Shown: one piece after another, positions 3,632 through 36,108 of the stretch | Layout of the letters: the number at the start of each line of letters is the position of its first letter | How positions within the stretch are numbered: the first letter of the stretch is position 1 | Virus record (IMG/VR): IMGVR_UViG_3300020536_000001 | Coordinates: 1-44,466 of that record | Direction: 5' to 3' (one strand) | Source: a virus | DNA length: 44,466 nucleotides | Position numbers and translations under genes: made by a program | Notes under the pieces: model-generated | The model's database searches: none | What the model was told of the DNA's origin: nothing | The model's input: the letters and a program-made list of their open reading frames with translations, nothing else

Positions 3632-6557
3632 TAAAATATCGGTAAGTTACGATGCGAATATAGACGATATGAAGCGAAAGCTTGAAGAGCTTATCGCACT
3701 CAATAATAGGTTAAAAAGGAGTTCCGAGGATGTTTCTGGTGCTTATTCAAAGGCAGGTTCTTCCATAAGTTCTGCCAATGCGTCCGTGGCCCAATCCACC
3801 ACGGTCATAAACAATTACAACAACTCCGTAAACAACACGACCAACAATGTGACCCGAATGGGGTCGGCGGTCAATAATGCGAGCAAACAAGTTTCGGAAT
3901 TTGACGGGTTATTGTCTCGTGTTGCATCAAGAATGGCCGCCTATTTTGCGATTGACTCGCTTGTAAACTTTGGAAAATCCGTTGTTGATACGACAAGAAA
4001 GGTTGAGCTTATGCAAAACCGACTTTCGTTCGTTTTTGGCAGCGTTACCGGTGGGCGAGAAGCGTTTGACAGGCTTTATGATACTTCCCAAAAGCTCGGC
4101 ATAGGATTCCAAGAACTTGGCGATGGATTTTCAAGTTTTGCGATTGCCGCAAAGATGGCAGGGTTCTCGGCCAAAGAATCCGAAGGGATGTTCACCAAGG
4201 TGGCGATTGCATTACGAGGAGCAGGAGCGAACTCGCTTCAAACCCAAAGATCATTCTACGCCTTGCAGCAAATGTTGTCCAAGGGAGTGGTTGCTGCGGA
4301 AGAATTACGCAGGCAGTTAGGTGAAGCGTTGCCGGGTGCATCCGACTTGATGACCAAAGCGTACAACCGCCTTCACCCCGCCCAACAAGTCACCAACCTT
4401 GGCTTCACAAAGTTGCTTGAGAACGGCAAAATCATATCAGCTGAAATCCTGCCCGAATTTGCACGAGTATTAGAAGAAACCTTTGCCCCTGCCGTTGCAG
4501 GAAAATCGGGTTCTTTGGATGCGTCTTTGACAAGAGTGACGAACTCGTGGGAAAGATTCAAGTTATCCCTTGGCGAGGCAAACTTCCAAACAATCATCTC
4601 TTTTACGACAGAACTCACAGAGGCCATAGACCTGCTTAATCTTTCACTCACCAACGAACGATTAAGCCTTTTGGAACGCATTGCCATTGCCTTTGACGGC
4701 ATATTCAATCCAGGAAAAAAAGACTTGTTTACCGCACAGCTTTATACCGAAAAAGTATTGAACCAAGAATTAAGGAAACGACAATCAATCATTTATGCTT
4801 TGTCTGGCGAATACGAGAATATAGGGGATGCGAGCAAGGCATCTACTATTGCGATTGAAATGCTAAACGAAAAAGCCGCTTCATCTCAGGCAGAGTTTAA
4901 CAGATTGACCCTTGAGCAACTTGAGGAAAAGAGAGAAAGTATTGCGGCAGAACTGAAAGACACCGAGCATCTCCTTAGTTTGGGCAAGGCAGGGACCGAC
5001 CAACTCCGAGTTAAAGGCAAAGCCTATCAGATTATTTTGGATAGGATGGAGGAAATAAGAATCAAAAACAAGGAAACCGAAAAGCAGGAAGGCGATGCCA
5101 TTGCAGCGGCCAAAGAACGAGTTGCTCTTGAGGAAACCCGATTGCTCAAAACCACCGAAGGAACCACGGCGTATTACAACCAGCTCATAAAGCTCATTCA
5201 GGCCCGTAAGGACTTGGTAAAGCTTGAGAAGGCGGGAACACCGAATCAAATGGGGCTTGACCTTGCAAAGCTTGACAAAGACCTGGAGAAGGCCCGGAAG
5301 ATGGTTGAGTCCTTTGACCCGAATGTTGCCGAGGTCATTGAGGAAGGAGTCTATGTGCCGAGCGTTGAGTCCCTTCAAAAACTCAGCAAAGACATCAAGG
5401 ACTTGACGGTTCAAATGTTGCAGGATAGTGCCGCAGAGATTGAGGCCGAGATTCAATTACACGCCGAAGGAACGGACAGAAGGCTTGAACTTGAGAAGGC
5501 GTTGGTGATGGCCAAGGCAAGACTCGCCGCTAAGAGTGCTGAGATTCAAGGCAAATCGGTCAAAGAGATTGAGGCCATCTTCGCCAAGGCCAACATTGAT
5601 ATGCAAAAGCTTGACACCGACTTTAACGATGGCAAGAAGAAGGAGGCCGAGGATTATGCCGAGTTCTACAAGCGACTGCAAGACGGCCTGGATGGGTATG
5701 AGGGAAATTCCCTGGATAAGCGACTGAAGGCCATTCGTGAATACTATGGAAAATTAATTGACGAAGCGAAGGACTATGGTAGGAGTAAAGAAGAGATTGA
5801 CGCTCTTGCCGCAAATCGGGATAAAGCCCTGTTTGAGGAGAATGTAAAAGAGGTTGGCAAATTCGTTAATGCGGCTGGCGATTTATACAACCAATTCACT
5901 CAGATTCAAGAGATGGAGTTTAATAACCAAAAGACCGCTCTTGACAACAAGCTTGCCCAAGGATTGATTTCCGAGGAGCAATACAACGCAGAACTTGCGG
6001 ATATTGAGAAAAAACAATTTGAGCAAAACAAGAAGACCCAAAAGGTAAATGTCTTAATAAATAGCGCATCCGCTATTGTTCGTGCTTTCAGCGAACTTGG
6101 GCCGATTGGAGGTGCGCTTGCGGCCTTTGCGATTGGGGCTATGGCGATCAAGCAAATGAGTCTTATTGATTCGGCTCAGTTCCCAGAGGGATTCAAGGAA
6201 GGGGTTATTGATTTGAACGGCCCAGGCACCGGCACATCCGACAGCATTCCTGCAAGGCTCTCTCGTGGCGAGTCGGTAATGACCGCAGACGAGACCAAGC
6301 GGTACAAGCCCGTCCTCCAAGCCATCCGTGACAATAACTTTGAGGAGTTTGTCTCCAAGCGATACATTGACGCAATGAGCGGCACCAAGCGTTCCTTTGC
6401 CGACAATGTTGGAGCATCCATTGAGCTGAACAACTTTGAGATGATTGATGCTATCCGAAAGAACAAGAGCGTGAAGATTGCGAATTGGGATGACTTTGAC
6501 AAAGTTCTCCGCAAACCAAGGACGGCCCACAAGGTCCATAGAAGGAGGGCTTGGTAA
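3624..6557 (+). CDS. Tail tape measure protein, 977 aa
   Basis: Length, coiled-coil K/E-rich middle, and an N-terminal region (FGKSVVDTTRKVE...GIGFQELGDGFSSFAIAAKMAGFS...ALQQMLSKGVVAAEELRRQLGEALPGA) typical of tape-measure core domains. Confidence 0.9.
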   Translation: MADKISVSYDANIDDMKRKLEELIALNNRLKRSSEDVSGAYSKAGSSISSANASVAQSTTVINNYNNSVNNTTNNVTRMGSAVNNASKQVSEFDGLLSRVASRMAAYFAIDSLVNFGKSVVDTTRKVELMQNRLSFVFGSVTGGREAFDRLYDTSQKLGIGFQELGDGFSSFAIAAKMAGFSAKESEGMFTKVAIALRGAGANSLQTQRSFYALQQMLSKGVVAAEELRRQLGEALPGASDLMTKAYNRLHPAQQVTNLGFTKLLENGKIISAEILPEFARVLEETFAPAVAGKSGSLDASLTRVTNSWERFKLSLGEANFQTIISFTTELTEAIDLLNLSLTNERLSLLERIAIAFDGIFNPGKKDLFTAQLYTEKVLNQELRKRQSIIYALSGEYENIGDASKASTIAIEMLNEKAASSQAEFNRLTLEQLEEKRESIAAELKDTEHLLSLGKAGTDQLRVKGKAYQIILDRMEEIRIKNKETEKQEGDAIAAAKERVALEETRLLKTTEGTTAYYNQLIKLIQARKDLVKLEKAGTPNQMGLDLAKLDKDLEKARKMVESFDPNVAEVIEEGVYVPSVESLQKLSKDIKDLTVQMLQDSAAEIEAEIQLHAEGTDRRLELEKALVMAKARLAAKSAEIQGKSVKEIEAIFAKANIDMQKLDTDFNDGKKKEAEDYAEFYKRLQDGLDGYEGNSLDKRLKAIREYYGKLIDEAKDYGRSKEEIDALAANRDKALFEENVKEVGKFVNAAGDLYNQFTQIQEMEFNNQKTALDNKLAQGLISEEQYNAELADIEKKQFEQNKKTQKVNVLINSASAIVRAFSELGPIGGALAAFAIGAMAIKQMSLIDSAQFPEGFKEGVIDLNGPGTGTSDSIPARLSRGESVMTADETKRYKPVLQAIRDNNFEEFVSKRYIDAMSGTKRSFADNVGASIELNNFEMIDAIRKNKSVKIANWDDFDKVLRKPRTAHKVHRRRAW

Positions 6558-31943: not shown

Positions 31944-32098
31944 TTGTTCTTGGGTTTTTTGTTGTCGGTGTTTTTTGCGATGACATCAACGAGAGAACCA
32001 CAATAGGGGCAATACGGACCGCCCTTGATGTCTATTTGTGCCTGGGTCACATCGTGTTGTATCAGGCCGTGCTTGTCGCACTTTCCAACGTATTTCAT
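31940..32098 (-). CDS. Small zinc-ribbon-like protein, 52 aa
   Basis: Hand translation: MKYVGKCDKHGLIQHDVTQAQIDIKGGPYCPYCGSLVDVIAKNTDNKKPKNK. ATGA overlaps at both ends. Confidence 0.5.
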   Translation of the reverse strand: MKYVGKCDKHGLIQHDVTQAQIDIKGGPYCPYCGSLVDVIAKNTDNKKPKNK

Positions 32099-34197
32099 AG
32101 TTCCTTCATTAAGTTCTCAACATACTGAATGCGTTGGCCTATCCATCGCATAACAGGCACCGCCATTGAGTTACCGCAAGCCTTGTATCTTGGCCCATCG
32201 GGACATTGGTCGGCTTCCTTGTTGCGATATGGAATCTTCGTCCAATCATCGGGGAATCCCTGCAAGCGTTCGCACTCCTTCGGGGTCAGCCTTCGGATGG
32301 CCATTGAGTGTAACACGGCATTCATATTCGTTCCGTGCTGTTCCCTTACCACTCCAAACTTATCGCCAGTTGTTTTTTGATTGTAAACATCCACGGCAAT
32401 ACAAGGCCCACTCATTTTAGCCAAGTCGGTTTTAAGTGTTTGAGCGATGCCTTGGTCAACTTGTGCAGTACGCCAGTCCACGGCTATCGGTTGCAACACG
32501 GCTCCAATATGCTCTGTATCGGATTGTGATCGGATGGTTTGCGTGGTATGGTCGTTTGTGGTGTAATTGTAGGTGTCCACGGCTATCGGTTGGGCAACTC
32601 CTTGAGTGGCTTTTGTGTCAACGGTATAAGATGTTCCGTCATCGTTCCATCCACGACCATTTTGAGCCTTTTCAATCGGCCTAACATCTTGAATGGCTAT
32701 CGGTTGGGCAACTGCGTGTGGCCCTTTCGCAACCAACGATGACATCGTTTCTCCTTCCTCAATCCTCGGCTCGTATTGTGCGTTCTCTCCTTGATTGAAT
32801 GCTGCTCGGTCAATGATTAGTGGCGCACCTTGGTCTGCTTCAGGTCTTGCTCCTTTGTAATCCCTTGCACATAAAGCATTACTTACTCTCGGAGTGCTTG
32901 GGTTTCTAACGCTTCCTTCAACATTGGAGGCAACTTCTTCCCTCTTTTTTCTGCTCGGTTTAGTATTCCCTTGCAGGCTTTCGGACTCAAATAGAACCGC
33001 TGCGGCAACTCTCCAATCTCCAAGGTATCCGAAAGTAGCGTCTCTATTGTTGGCTTGTTTAATGATATTAGTGATCTCGCAAATCCCCCCCATTTCGCTA
33101 AATATGTCTCTACTTGTTTGTCTCGCATAATTCGTAAGATTTTGTGATAGGGTTAAAAAAGATGATGTTGCGCTTAACGAGTTCGGGGACGATCCGCTCA
33201 AACGAAGAATGAGCCTTCCGATGACTTCCCCTATCCGGAAAAACATAGAGATTTTCGGCTGAATTGTTTCCTTTGTCAAAGTCAATGTGGTGTACAATTT
33301 CATCAGATCGTAAAGGTCTTCCAATGACTTGTTCAACGACTCTTCTGTGAGTATATACTGGCCTTCCGTTGATGAACCCATCAATAGGTCTTCCAGAGTG
33401 ATTTCCTTTTCTGTCTTTGCGCCATTTGGCAAGTCCCAATATTTTTGAACGGGAACTGACTTCTGAAATACCTCTATCAAGAGTTGCCGCCACATCTCGT
33501 AGGAACAATTTTCCGTGAGAATCCCGAACAAACGCATCCTCCTCTGGACTCCATCTCTTGAGAGGCTTGCTTGATCCAAGTTTTTTGGCTCTTGCCCTAA
33601 CAGACATAACGCATCTATCCAAATGGCGTGCAATATCTCTGTGAGACATTGAGCTATAGTTAGCCCTGATAAAGTTGTCTTCTGATTCAGTATAGAATCT
33701 ACGCTTTGTCCACATACGAATACTCTCCTTCTTCTTTGTGCTACTCCAAAAAATTGTGCATCTAAAATTTCAACATCGCAAATATACCCCAACTCTTCCA
33801 AAGAATCAAGAAAGCAAGCAAAATCCCTTCCTCCGTTACTTGACAACACGCCGGGGACATTTTCCCAGACAATCCATTTGGGCTTTTTTGCGTCAGCCAA
33901 TGCGAGAAATGTGAGCATGAGGTTTCCTCGTGGGTCAGCAAGTCCTTTGCGAAGTCCTGCGACTGAGAAGGATTGGCAGGGGGTTCCTCCGACCAGAAGG
34001 TCAATTGATCGTTCATTGAATGTTGGGTTTTGGGTTAGTTGAGTCATATCCCCAAGGTTGGGAACATCGGGAAAGCGGTGTTTCAATACCTCGGAAGGGA
34101 ATTGCTCAATCTCTGAGAACCATTGCGGTTCCCATCCAAGGTTATGCCAAGCGACTGAGGCTGCCTCAATGCCTGAACAAACGGATCCGTATTTCAT
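32095..34197 (-). CDS. DNA (cytosine-5) methyltransferase, 700 aa as read, carrying a ~227-codon insert after motif VIII
   Basis: Motif I CSGIEAAS, motif IV GGTPCQSFS, motif VI WENVPGV, motif VIII QRRRRVFV. C-terminal RRLTPKECERLQGFPDDW and CGNSMAVPV. Confidence 0.85.
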   Translation of the reverse strand: MKYGSVCSGIEAASVAWHNLGWEPQWFSEIEQFPSEVLKHRFPDVPNLGDMTQLTQNPTFNERSIDLLVGGTPCQSFSVAGLRKGLADPRGNLMLTFLALADAKKPKWIVWENVPGVLSSNGGRDFACFLDSLEELGYICDVEILDAQFFGVAQRRRRVFVCGQSVDSILNQKTTLSGLTIAQCLTEILHAIWIDALCLLGQEPKNLDQASLSRDGVQRRMRLFGILTENCSYEMWRQLLIEVFQKSVPVQKYWDLPNGAKTEKEITLEDLLMGSSTEGQYILTEESLNKSLEDLYDLMKLYTTLTLTKETIQPKISMFFRIGEVIGRLILRLSGSSPNSLSATSSFLTLSQNLTNYARQTSRDIFSEMGGICEITNIIKQANNRDATFGYLGDWRVAAAVLFESESLQGNTKPSRKKREEVASNVEGSVRNPSTPRVSNALCARDYKGARPEADQGAPLIIDRAAFNQGENAQYEPRIEEGETMSSLVAKGPHAVAQPIAIQDVRPIEKAQNGRGWNDDGTSYTVDTKATQGVAQPIAVDTYNYTTNDHTTQTIRSQSDTEHIGAVLQPIAVDWRTAQVDQGIAQTLKTDLAKMSGPCIAVDVYNQKTTGDKFGVVREQHGTNMNAVLHSMAIRRLTPKECERLQGFPDDWTKIPYRNKEADQCPDGPRYKACGNSMAVPVMRWIGQRIQYVENLMKEL
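33110..33715 (-). mobile_element. HNH homing-endonuclease ORF (201 aa) nested in a different frame inside the methyltransferase ORF
   Basis: Two Myb/SANT-like repeats (FYTESEDNFIR..., WSPEEDAFVR...) followed by EIVHHIDFDKGNNSAENLYVF...HRKAH (HNH_3-like). GC is lower than in the flanks. Confidence 0.75.
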
Positions 34198-35567
34198 CAG
34201 AATGGTGCTTTTAGGGTTTGAATCTTCTCCTCAAAGGTAGGAATGTTTCCATTAAAATCCAACACTTTTGTGTATTGAAGTTTAATTTTCCCCATAGCGG
34301 TACCAATCTTCCCATTCCGATTCTTCCTCACAAGGATTTCAAGGAGGTCAATGAGTTCTTGCTTTTGGGGGTCGTGGTCTTCCATATACTCGGAAGGACG
34401 ATACACGAACAGAATCTTATCGGCATCAAATTCAAGTTGGCCTGTTTCACGCAGGTCGCTCGGCTTGGGACGCTTGGAGTCCCTCTGCTCCACGCCCCTG
34501 GACAACGATGACACCACGCAAATCCAAATGTTGAGCCTCTTGCAAATCGTCTTGATGTACTTGGAGATGTTGGTCACTTGCTCAATTCGGGGCTTGCCTC
34601 GGTCTTCTGGCAGGGGAGAAATCAGTTGGAGGTAATCAATGTATGCCCCTTCAATCTTGTGCTTCTTGATGAGTTTTATCAACTCCAATTCCATCCGCTG
34701 AGGGTCAATGCCGGGGACATCCACAACGTGCAACGGTGCGCCTTTGACCTTATCAATGTGCTGAGAGATAGCCAAGAAGTCTTGACCGTTCATCCGCTCC
34801 TTGATGTCCAGGAAGACCTCTCCATCCACCTCGGCGAGGTTGGAAACCAATCGGGTCATCAGCTGCTCCGTGGACATCTCCAAGGTGAAGAAGGCCACAG
34901 GCTTTTTGTTCATCGCTTGGTTGAGAGCGTATTGCAGGGCCAAGGTGGTCTTGCCCATTGCAGGACGGCCCCCCAGGATGATAAACTCCGAAGGCTTGAA
35001 ACCCGTTATCAGGCTGTCGGTGTTGTGGTGGAAGGTTCGGGTGATGCTGTTGTCCTTCGCTCCCGTAATCACCTCGTTGAGGCCCATCATAAAGCCCAAG
35101 AGTAATTCGTGAACCTCGGTAGCAATCGGGTCGGGGTCTAAGGACTTGATGTCTTGGATTTCCTTGTAGAGGCGATCAACATCCTGGTGCTTGAGAAAGT
35201 CAATCTTGGTCTTCTCAATTTGGTCGTGGATGTACCGGCAATGCAACTCGTACCGGTACACCTTCCATCCATCGTGAGAATAAAGCCCTGAGTCAAGGCT
35301 TGCGAGAAACACCACATCGGTGGGGACATTCATCTCAATCATCCGTGAACGGACGGTGAGCGTGTTGATAGGCTTGTCCTCGGCCCGAAGGCTCCGAATG
35401 GCTTTAAAGGTATTCTTGCGGATTCCTTCATCAAAATACTCTTCTCGGAGTTGGAGGACTATATCCCCCGGCTTGATGATTTCGCAAATGAGGATGCCGA
35501 GGAGTCGGTCTTGGTATTCAGCGTACAATTCCGCTGGGAGGCGTGTAAAATCGGAGTGGTTGTTCAT
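34197..35567 (-). CDS. dnaB: Replicative DNA helicase (DnaB family), 456 aa
   Basis: Walker A GGRPAMGKTTLAL, plus YIDYLQLI and RNGKIG motifs. Start taken at MNNHSDFTRLP; the ORF track begins at 35633. The stop shares 1 nt with the methyltransferase ATG. Confidence 0.9.
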   Translation of the reverse strand: MNNHSDFTRLPAELYAEYQDRLLGILICEIIKPGDIVLQLREEYFDEGIRKNTFKAIRSLRAEDKPINTLTVRSRMIEMNVPTDVVFLASLDSGLYSHDGWKVYRYELHCRYIHDQIEKTKIDFLKHQDVDRLYKEIQDIKSLDPDPIATEVHELLLGFMMGLNEVITGAKDNSITRTFHHNTDSLITGFKPSEFIILGGRPAMGKTTLALQYALNQAMNKKPVAFFTLEMSTEQLMTRLVSNLAEVDGEVFLDIKERMNGQDFLAISQHIDKVKGAPLHVVDVPGIDPQRMELELIKLIKKHKIEGAYIDYLQLISPLPEDRGKPRIEQVTNISKYIKTICKRLNIWICVVSSLSRGVEQRDSKRPKPSDLRETGQLEFDADKILFVYRPSEYMEDHDPQKQELIDLLEILVRKNRNGKIGTAMGKIKLQYTKVLDFNGNIPTFEEKIQTLKAPF

Positions 35568-36108
35568 TGTTTTGGGTTGAATGGTAGGGTTTGTGTTGGG
35601 AATGGCCTCCAGACTGCGTAGGAAGCTCGTCATTGAACGCTTTATGGGTTAGGTATCTTACGGGGTCTTTGCGGAACTTACGCTCTCTGTGAGCCTCTAA
35701 ATAGGTCGGAAGGGTATTGCGGATTTTCTCAATCTCTTCATCGGTCAGTTTGAACCAAGCGAGGATGGCTTTGTCCTTGCCGACCTTCTTGTCGTAGAAG
35801 TTCCAAAAGCCTTCAAACATAGCCATCATTTCCTCTTGGGAGTGTTTAGAGTTCCTGCGGATGTTTTTGTTGGAGTATTTGGACGTTCCCTTCTCTTTTT
35901 CCTCCCCCACACCCCCTCCTTTATCTCTACCCTTTAGAGTGTTTAGAGTATTAGTATTGTTTATATGTATAGAATTGTCTATATAATTATATATATATAG
36001 TAGGTTTTGTTGAAAAATCAAGTTTTCTCGCTCAATTTTATCCACATAACTCTCCAGGTCTTTGACATACTCGTCCTGGTCAAGGTAGCATTCGGGGTTA
36101 GGCCGCAT
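35518..36108 (-). CDS. Replication-organiser-like protein, 196 aa, with an internal AT-rich low-complexity linker
   Basis: C-terminal FEGFWNFYDKKVGKDKAILAWFKL...RKFRKDPVRYL resembles phage replication/DnaD-like helper proteins (by memory). Lies directly upstream of dnaB. Confidence 0.45.
   Translation of the reverse strand: MRPNPECYLDQDEYVKDLESYVDKIERENLIFQQNLLYIYNYIDNSIHINNTNTLNTLKGRDKGGGVGEEKEKGTSKYSNKNIRRNSKHSQEEMMAMFEGFWNFYDKKVGKDKAILAWFKLTDEEIEKIRNTLPTYLEAHRERKFRKDPVRYLTHKAFNDELPTQSGGHSQHKPYHSTQNNEQPLRFYTPPSGIVR

Follow-up and report, generated by a model that had tools for sequence, protein, structure and literature searches.

How can a homing endonuclease gene lie inside the gene of another enzyme, in a different reading frame, while the frame of the host gene remains open from end to end? 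This question is raised by a virus genome, IMG/VR record IMGVR_UViG_3300020536_000001, of which positions 1 to 44,466 were analyzed (hereafter the window; all coordinates refer to this whole stretch of 44,466 nucleotides, and the methylase gene and the features mapped within it are on the minus strand). In the window, the open reading frame (ORF) of a C5 cytosine DNA methyltransferase (32095..34197, 700 aa) runs through an insert that encodes, out of frame, a complete HNH endonuclease. An earlier note, made from the DNA letters only, had drawn attention to this arrangement and left three explanations for it, namely a translated dual-coding insert, a spliced intron and overprinting. In the usual view, homing endonucleases persist in useful genes only by means of an intron or an intein, or else sit between genes. 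A third route, recognized in 2025, is a cassette whose sequence lets the host ribosome translate across it in a different frame. We consider it probable that the window holds an element of this third kind, namely a mobile HNH cassette with which the methylase copes by read-through in an alternative frame.

Methyltransferase gene and its insert

The 700-aa ORF encodes a C5 cytosine DNA methyltransferase. In a profile search it matched the Pfam DNA_methylase family (PF00145, E=4.8e-60, above the gathering score) in two separate stretches, the first covering residues 1-172 (profile positions 1-169) and the second the C-terminus. Motifs I (SGIE), IV (GGTPCQ), VI (ENVPG) and VIII (QRRRR) are contained in residues 1-161; they are followed by target-recognition modules and by the C-terminal motifs IX (RRLTP.ECERLQGFP) and X (GNSMAVP). 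The catalytic domain of an AlphaFold2 (AF2) model of the whole protein matches M.HhaI and M.HaeIII in Foldseek.

The proposal of the earlier note that a segment of non-methylase character is inserted after motif VIII is borne out by the two-part PF00145 match, by intact homologues and by the lack of a family match for the segment. Uninterrupted homologues in Manatee Spring virus, Roseobacter phage CRP-821 and Pseudanabaena phage Pan4 read ..QRRRRVFVVG(Y/H/C)LGDWR.., and the insert of the window is placed between ..RRRRVFV and GYLGDWR, directly after motif VIII. By DNA alignment to a near-identical HNH-free allele (L137), it spans 33031..33714 (684 nt) and substitutes 228 codons for one Val codon. 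At the right junction, where the MAFFT DNA alignment is poor, the edge was placed by eye using the common GGATACCTTGGAGA. The methylase text ends with ..GTATTCGT on the left of the insert and resumes with GGATACCTT on the right. The HNH start codon (33713-33715) spans the left edge, and just ~80 nt of the insert are situated outside the HNH ORF, past its stop codon.

The methylase-frame text of the insert had no matches in Pfam, PHROG or NCBIfam, and Foldseek with the 700-aa model recovered the catalytic domain but nothing for the insert. AF2, supplied with a 43-sequence alignment, folds residues 166-361 into a helical bundle with a predicted local distance difference test score (pLDDT) of mostly 63-90. 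An exhaustive HMMER search identified the methylase-frame insert in 132 cluster representatives (50% identity), nearly always at residues ~160-390 of proteins of 500-1100 aa, and its hosts range from cyanophage-like contigs to mycobacteriophages. The G+C content of the insert is 0.423, compared with 0.365 in the adjacent flank (33716..33819), 0.49 in the remaining gene and 0.478 in the window. The insert is indeed lower in G+C than the rest of the gene, as had been suggested, but the drop is smaller than the ~37% given at that time would imply.

HNH endonuclease gene

The gene at 33110..33715, in frame +2 relative to the methylase, encodes a complete protein of 201 aa, and its assignment in the earlier note to the HNH endonucleases holds. 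The product matches Pfam HNH_3 (PF13392, E=8e-9, 35.4 bits against a cut-off of 24.8) and the PHROG HNH families (best 6e-14). The HNH_3 domain forms its C-terminal half, with the core SDEIVHHID..N..NL..H invariant across 21 sequences; by profile and His-Asn-His core, the predicted product is an HNH endonuclease. The N-terminal half (residues 1-100, 33413..33715) contains two R-W-x-x-E-D helix-turn-helix-like repeats, which probably serve as the DNA-recognition module of the endonuclease. The same half also matches phrog_323 ('transcriptional regulator, D5-like', E=5.5e-17). The ORF is unbroken in 20 other loci, at 44-100% identity.

The HNH gene possesses translation start signals of its own (an ATG and an AAGGAG), as is characteristic of free-standing homing endonucleases. 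The Shine-Dalgarno sequence AAGGAG (33725..33730) is located 9 nt upstream of the ATG and is formed by the AGA-AGG-AGA codons of motif VIII (QRRRR). The ATG itself sits in all alleles within GT-ATG-YG, the Val-Cys codons that follow RRRRVF. Shine-Dalgarno-like sequences (GGAG, GAGG or AGGA) are present at motif VIII in 11 of 15 HNH-bearing alleles versus 2 of 85 HNH-free alleles, which use mainly CGN codons for the arginines of this motif.

Selection on the open methylase frame

To collect relatives, public viral and genome contigs were queried with the HNH protein alone, so the outcome is independent of anyone's methylase calls. This DNA search returned 17 further full-length relatives with 44-100% HNH identity. 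All 17 HNH genes lie within a C5-methylase ORF, and none of them interrupts its frame. Free-standing genes encode the more distant HNHs (31-36% identity). Four additional diverged alleles were taken from a protein search.

Across the HNH gene, the methylase frame contains no stop codon in any of 15 non-redundant alleles, whereas the third frame contains 9-27 stops. Permutation of synonymous codons within each HNH gene predicts 3.1-6.3 stops in the methylase frame, and the probability of finding none, P(0), is 0-0.009 per sequence; for the HNH of the window the mean is 5.4 stops and P(0) = 3e-4. The figure previously calculated for 227 open codons under a uniform-codon null, (61/64)^227, was reproduced (1.8e-5), and the composition-aware permutation agrees with it. 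Given the complete lack of stops in 15 of 15 alleles and this permutation null, the open methylase frame is not due to chance; it is under selection.

The diversity at codon positions 1/2/3 of the HNH gene is 0.39/0.27/0.43, compared with 0.40/0.30/0.63 in the upstream exon (15 alleles); in a five-allele set the corresponding values are 0.36/0.23/0.35 and 0.26/0.17/0.58. That the HNH region has no freely evolving codon position fits constraint from a second frame. Overprinting, the last of the three options of the earlier note, holds only in reverse: the HNH, which has free-standing homologues, is the older reading, and the methylase-frame reading of the insert, which has no homologues outside HNH-bearing methylases, the derived one.

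Probable mobility of the cassette

The 5' part of the window methylase gene (from motif I to ENVPG) shares 97.3% DNA identity with the HNH-free L137, compared with 62-70% with other HNH-bearing alleles. In the alignment, as read by eye, the window and L137 are ~97% identical over gene nt 1-378, and the stretch from there to the HNH ATG is sharply diverged. This diverged 5' flank of ~105 nt (33716..33819, methylase residues ~127-161, ACFLDSLEELGYICDVEILDAQFFGVAQRRRRVFV) travels with the HNH gene. Its version LEE(L/I)GY..D.(E/D)ILDAQ (in the context ..FLD.LEE..) is common to all HNH-bearing alleles, and near the insertion site the HNH-free L137 reads GGGATTTTGGTACC...GTTGTCGGATACC. Four insert-free proteins (P0021, P0025, P0031 and P0053) read near-identical to the window enzyme at both ends. 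Furthermore, HNH-bearing alleles are not mutual nearest relatives in the exon, and exon divergence is weakly correlated with HNH divergence (r=0.29 at non-synonymous positions). The element is thus present or absent in close host genes and moves together with its flank, as do free-standing homing genes. This pattern points to homing with co-conversion of the flank, which is probably immune to cleavage; cleavage and homing would both be activities of the predicted endonuclease.

Vertical inheritance offers a different account of the same locus. A domesticated dual-coding gene would be stably inherited, with the HNH or the helical insert working together with the methylase, for instance as a nuclease against unmodified DNA or as a DNA-binding module. 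It would agree with the age and spread of the element (HNH identity down to 44%, 132 clusters, hosts from cyanophage-like contigs to mycobacteriophages), with an HNH active site that is intact everywhere, with the apparent constraint on both frames and with the modelled fold of the insert. However, alleles with and without the HNH occur in near-identical methylase backgrounds (97% identity of the upstream DNA; the same C-terminal text in P0002 and P0021), and the exon relationships, the weak exon/HNH correlation and the traveling flank described above are all typical of homing. We regard domestication as unlikely.

Overlapping genes ORF-X and ORF3

The earlier note overlooked that protein is encoded in the third frame as well. 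ORF3 (32883..33128, 81 aa, frame +1 relative to the methylase) has its ATG 16 nt before the HNH stop; its first ~33 codons are located in the 3' end of the insert, and the remainder overlaps the methylase codons GYLGDWR..SNVEGSV. Over 19 nt (33110..33128) all three frames coincide, with the methylase read-through, the end of the HNH (LCETNK and stop) and the start of ORF3 (MRDKQV). The ATG and an ORF of 80-92 aa are kept in 15 of 15 alleles. The codon-position diversity of ORF3 is 0.34/0.30/0.53 (15 alleles), an ordinary protein-coding pattern, whereas the same DNA in the methylase frame (GYLGDWR..) gives 0.42/0.23/0.19, with position 3 the least variable. In distant HNH-bearing alleles the ORF3-frame text is conserved and the methylase-frame text of this part is not. 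By these patterns, ORF3 is under purifying selection. In the AF2 model, ORF3 has two C-terminal helices (pLDDT ~90) and a disordered N-terminus; searches of Pfam, PHROG and NCBIfam with it gave no matches. An example of a peptide unique to the HNH frame/ORF3 is MRDKQVETYLAK.

A much wider overlap is found in methylases that lack the insert. In a set of 66-68 insert-free methylases (the insert-free loci being L001-L003 and L057-L138), the +1 frame is open over a median of 161 codons, the other frame being open for ~20 and ~10 codons on either side. A TGA arising from the conserved GDMT codons marks the start of this open stretch, which extends to ~50 codons beyond motif VIII and in which ~2 stops would be expected under synonymous permutation. 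The codon-position diversity of the methylase in this set is 0.26/0.21/0.61 before the overlap, 0.21/0.14/0.42 in its upstream part, 0.42/0.28/0.26 over the 45 codons that follow motif VIII and, at the C-terminus, 0.31/0.22/0.61. From the long open +1 frame and these diversities we infer that the methylase family carries an overlapping gene, here named ORF-X. Just after motif VIII, ORF-X is, on this evidence, the dominant constraint, and the wobble signal in that region is attributed to ORF-X rather than to the methylase.

Most ORF-X copies start with an ATG that follows AAGGAGTGG, the usual form being AAGGAG-N-ATG. The ORF-X ATG of the window (34016) lacks an upstream AAGGAGTGG in 34017..34036, and so do the close HNH-free alleles L137 and L138. 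ORF-X matches phrog_16143 (139 positions, labelled 'DNA methyltransferase') at 7e-10; it has no Pfam match and no PDB sequence match at E<=10. By tblastn it is present in 158 phage genomes, including P1/P7 dmt, Vibrio, Streptococcus and mycobacteriophages. In P1 dmt (L145), the +1 frame is open for 163 codons (gene nt 299-787) and ends with ..CLLSQVLEQTSIPQRYFLSSKACAGILRRGEKRRKSLPPLLQMALQSVAKA. We found no paper that describes ORF-X in a literature search of incomplete coverage.

Since the family already had ORF-X in the +1 frame, the HNH insertion cut this gene as well. ORF-X is full length (148 aa) in the HNH-free L137. In the window, an N-terminal remnant of 84 aa (33762..34016, frame +1, MNDQLTFWSEEPPANPSQSQ...) is ended by a TAG that comes from the diverged 105-nt flank. 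The earlier overlapping gene was thus split by the insert into two halves, one being the ORF at 33762..34016 and the other ORF3. In the older HNH-bearing alleles L004-L006, no open stretch of at least 50 codons in frame 1 was found at the site of the remnant. We lean, if only slightly, towards the broader proposal that an undescribed ORF-X of ~150 codons is present in the +1 frame throughout the family, from cyanophage-like contigs to P1 dmt, that the cassette has adapted to both host genes and that all three frames are translated.

Three other interpretations of this frame were tried and rejected. The frame-1 text (LSDILE..YYLS.KAC.GILRRA) was considered as the canonical segment after motif VIII of a frameshifted enzyme, but a chimera of the N-terminus and the frame-1 text did not extend the PF00145 match. 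The tail of ORF-X was considered as a look-alike of motif IX, by analogy with the beta subunit of M.EcoHK31I, but the hhalign probability was 0.1%, and there was no PDB sequence match at E<=10. Two seemingly stand-alone ORF-X-like genes (P0140 and P0147) proved to be +1-frame calls over another C5 methylase.

In one locus (L143, Logan SRR11485371_41760), the methylase frame stops almost exactly at the ORF-X stop, and a new ORF continues the enzyme. This locus looks like a natural alpha/beta split at the ORF-X boundary and, from reading its sequence by eye, would belong to another, Firmicutes-like subfamily. ORF-X was noted in L142 as well as in L143.

Proposed mechanism and alternative explanations

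In the mechanism that we propose, an HNH cassette of the free-standing type would have invaded a phage C5-methyltransferase gene at the hinge between the end of the catalytic domain (after motif VIII) and the target-recognition region, a position at which C5 methylases tolerate splitting. The cassette would be kept in both RNA and protein, with the methylase read through in a frame that is shifted one base downstream from that of the HNH. The product would be an enzyme of ~78 kDa with a mostly helical insertion of ~227 residues, presumably still active as a methylase. The HNH would be made separately by internal initiation at the Val-Cys ATG after RRRRVF, served by the AAGGAG of motif VIII. 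The cassette would spread by homing into empty alleles, pulling along ~105 nt of upstream methylase sequence. Finally, its 3' end would supply a new ATG and ~33 codons, which re-start the C-terminal module of ORF-X as ORF3, and initiation of ORF3 is probably coupled to HNH termination.

An active read-through enzyme would not be needed if the insertion had inactivated the methylase and the frame had stayed open for some other reason, such as polarity, avoidance of premature termination or a use for the N-terminal fragment only. Orphan phage methylases are often dispensable, as has been argued for the ShiLan element compared below, and the methylase frame is broken by a deletion in one HNH-bearing allele (L012) and ends soon after the ORF3/ORF-X region in cluster J mycobacteriophages and in L143. 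Yet the exons of HNH-bearing alleles are under ordinary purifying selection (0.26/0.17/0.58), the aligned HNH-bearing proteins retain intact motifs I, IV, VI, VIII, IX and X, and in nearly all alleles the frame is open for ~300 more codons, through the recognition modules to motif X. Inactivation is in our judgment a very unlikely explanation.

The insert might also be a group I or other self-splicing intron with an HNH ORF, the methylase mRNA being spliced and the open frame being incidental or used otherwise. HNH genes are common in phage group I introns, the insert is located exactly at a conserved catalytic motif, and an intron was assumed when cluster J mycobacteriophages were annotated for GenBank ('unable to determine intron boundaries'). 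Against this, the Rfam scan that the earlier note had called for, performed over 32000..34400 on both strands, gave no match at E<=1 and no recognizable ribozyme core. The HNH ATG occupies the first base of the insert, and the ~80 nt outside the HNH ORF evolve as ORF3 codons, which leaves no space for such a core. A spliced intron needs no open frame, whereas the host frame is open in 15 of 15 diverged alleles with P(0)<=0.009 in each. The ShiLan authors likewise obtained a negative result for their element with RNAweasel. Among the three options left earlier, the translated dual-coding insert is the one favored by these data, and for the intron we would allow a slim chance, if anything slightly below that of inactivation.

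An intein or intein-like protein-splicing element, which an in-frame, stop-free insert at a conserved motif that starts with Cys (VFV/CGQS) might suggest, has a negligible chance and had already been dismissed in the earlier note: the Pfam search showed no Hint/intein domain, the C-terminal junction (..DATFG/YLGDW) lacks His-Asn and a +1 Cys/Ser/Thr and is unconserved in distant alleles, the endonuclease is in another frame, and the AF2 model is a helical bundle rather than a Hint fold.

Several points weigh against the read-through cassette that we prefer. The absence of splicing is read from the sequence, in which nothing requires it, and phage group I introns often escape Rfam models. Protein-database matches are skewed to open frames, although the HNH-keyed DNA sample is free of this skew. 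Younger cassettes that spread horizontally could account for part of the low synonymous divergence of the HNH. Purifying selection on the methylase-frame amino acids of the insert, beyond the avoidance of stops, is only suggestive: methylase-frame identity exceeds a synonymous-recoding null, but an excess is also present in the non-coding third frame (0.45 vs 0.25; 0.37 vs 0.23), so this recoding test cannot separate selection from shared ancestry. The AF2 confidence for the insert may be raised by HNH-driven conservation in the alignment. The ORF3 ATG of the window has no Shine-Dalgarno sequence of its own. Finally, the deletion in L012, just downstream of the insert, stops the methylase frame, making this the sole HNH-bearing allele seen with a broken methylase.

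The L012 deletion (IMGVR_UViG_3300028114_000829, ~3690-3710) follows GGATACCTT and fuses the ORF3 frame to the downstream methylase modules.

Comparison with known systems

The earlier note had stated that no precedent was known for a translated insertion that also encodes an endonuclease; such a precedent exists. According to two papers, mycobacteriophage methylases can carry a stop-free insertion of 202 aa, the 'ShiLan domain' (Gosselin et al. 2023, PMC9957025), whose third frame encodes an HNH of 195 aa (Arsenault, Gosselin & Gogarten 2025, PMC11855218); the insertion lacks intron and intein features, and its disjunct distribution was read as homing (PMC9957025, PMC11855218). The window element shares with it the out-of-frame HNH, the stop-free methylase frame, the absence of an intron or intein signature and the disjunct distribution, as well as a methylase-frame insert modelled as a helical protrusion. 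The two differ in both partners. The ShiLan-type host protein Bipolar gp76 is an N6/N4 amino-methyltransferase with a DPPY motif, whereas the window enzyme is a C5 methylase. The ShiLan HNH is flanked by a Zn-ribbon (CxxC) and starts with a GTG 18 bp into the insertion without a ribosome-binding site, in contrast to the HNH_3 protein with helix-turn-helix repeats of the window, whose ATG at the first base is preceded by a Shine-Dalgarno sequence. The ShiLan-type HNH of Bipolar aligns with a cluster J relative of the window HNH in the core only (~48-52% over ~50-65 residues). Given a different host class and a different endonuclease, the window case is independent of the ShiLan element rather than homologous to it, and a better-supported variant of the same arrangement.

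Long open alternative frames are likelier to arise by chance in GC-rich actinophage genomes, where the ShiLan element resides, than in the window insert of 42% GC. In their available text, the ShiLan papers mention neither a selection test for the open frame nor a Shine-Dalgarno sequence, a co-converted flank or a third-frame gene. The window case shows that the third route is more than an oddity of GC-rich actinophages or a frame left open by chance, since the insert has 42% GC and its stop-free frame persists through >100 diverged lineages. From host arginine codons the element makes its own ribosome-binding site, and the flank marks its homing.

Other homing genes without introns include the seg/mob genes of T-even phages and mobE, which splits nrdA of phage Aeh1. 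They resemble the window cassette in having their own start signals, in entering conserved genes without a splicing element and in co-conversion of flanks. However, such elements are either intergenic or divide their host gene into parts that are translated separately, whereas the host ORF of the window still yields one polypeptide, since the cassette contains no stop in its frame.

A true homologue of the element is found in cluster J mycobacteriophages, among them Thibault, Bombitas, Schatzie and Hannaconda, whose HNH shares 44% identity with that of the window over 98% of its length. As in the window, it is inserted after motif VIII at the identical site, with an uninterrupted methylase frame and with ORF3, but the methylase is split into two coding sequences just after the ORF3 region (L140 Schatzie, L141 Bombitas, L021 Thibault). 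The GenBank annotation of this locus is inconsistent among these phages, being given as an HNH plus a hypothetical protein, as one read-through coding sequence, or with the remark on intron boundaries quoted above. We found no paper describing dual coding of the cluster J element.

Functional overlaps do exist among C5 methyltransferases, as the alternative-frame beta subunit of M.EcoHK31I illustrates: this enzyme is an alpha/beta C5 methyltransferase whose beta is encoded in another frame inside the alpha gene (PMC2836561). In that case beta supplies motif IX, whereas ORF-X/ORF3 gave an hhalign probability of 0.1% against a motif IX-X profile, and the window methylase, unlike the alpha/beta arrangement, has its own motif IX in frame 0. 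What appears to be new in the window is the effect of the cassette on an overlapping gene of the whole family, which is both split and re-started by it. A conserved gene of this kind in a very common phage methylase, including that of P1, would be invisible to standard annotation.

Target-recognition modules and genome context

The recognition region of the window methylase (~32290..32990, residues ~400-635) is an array of modules with (V)AQPIA between them. The number and order of modules vary among near-identical enzymes of 517 to 836 aa (P0002-P0007, P0021, P0025, P0031, P0053 and P0117). This variation looks like cassette shuffling of target-recognition domains, comparable to that of multispecific phage methylases.

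The methylase ATG shares one base with the stop codon of the upstream 478-aa ORF (34197..35633; region 34195..34199), whose counterpart in relatives is a DnaB-type helicase. The overlap suggests translational coupling of the methylase with this ORF inside a replication module.

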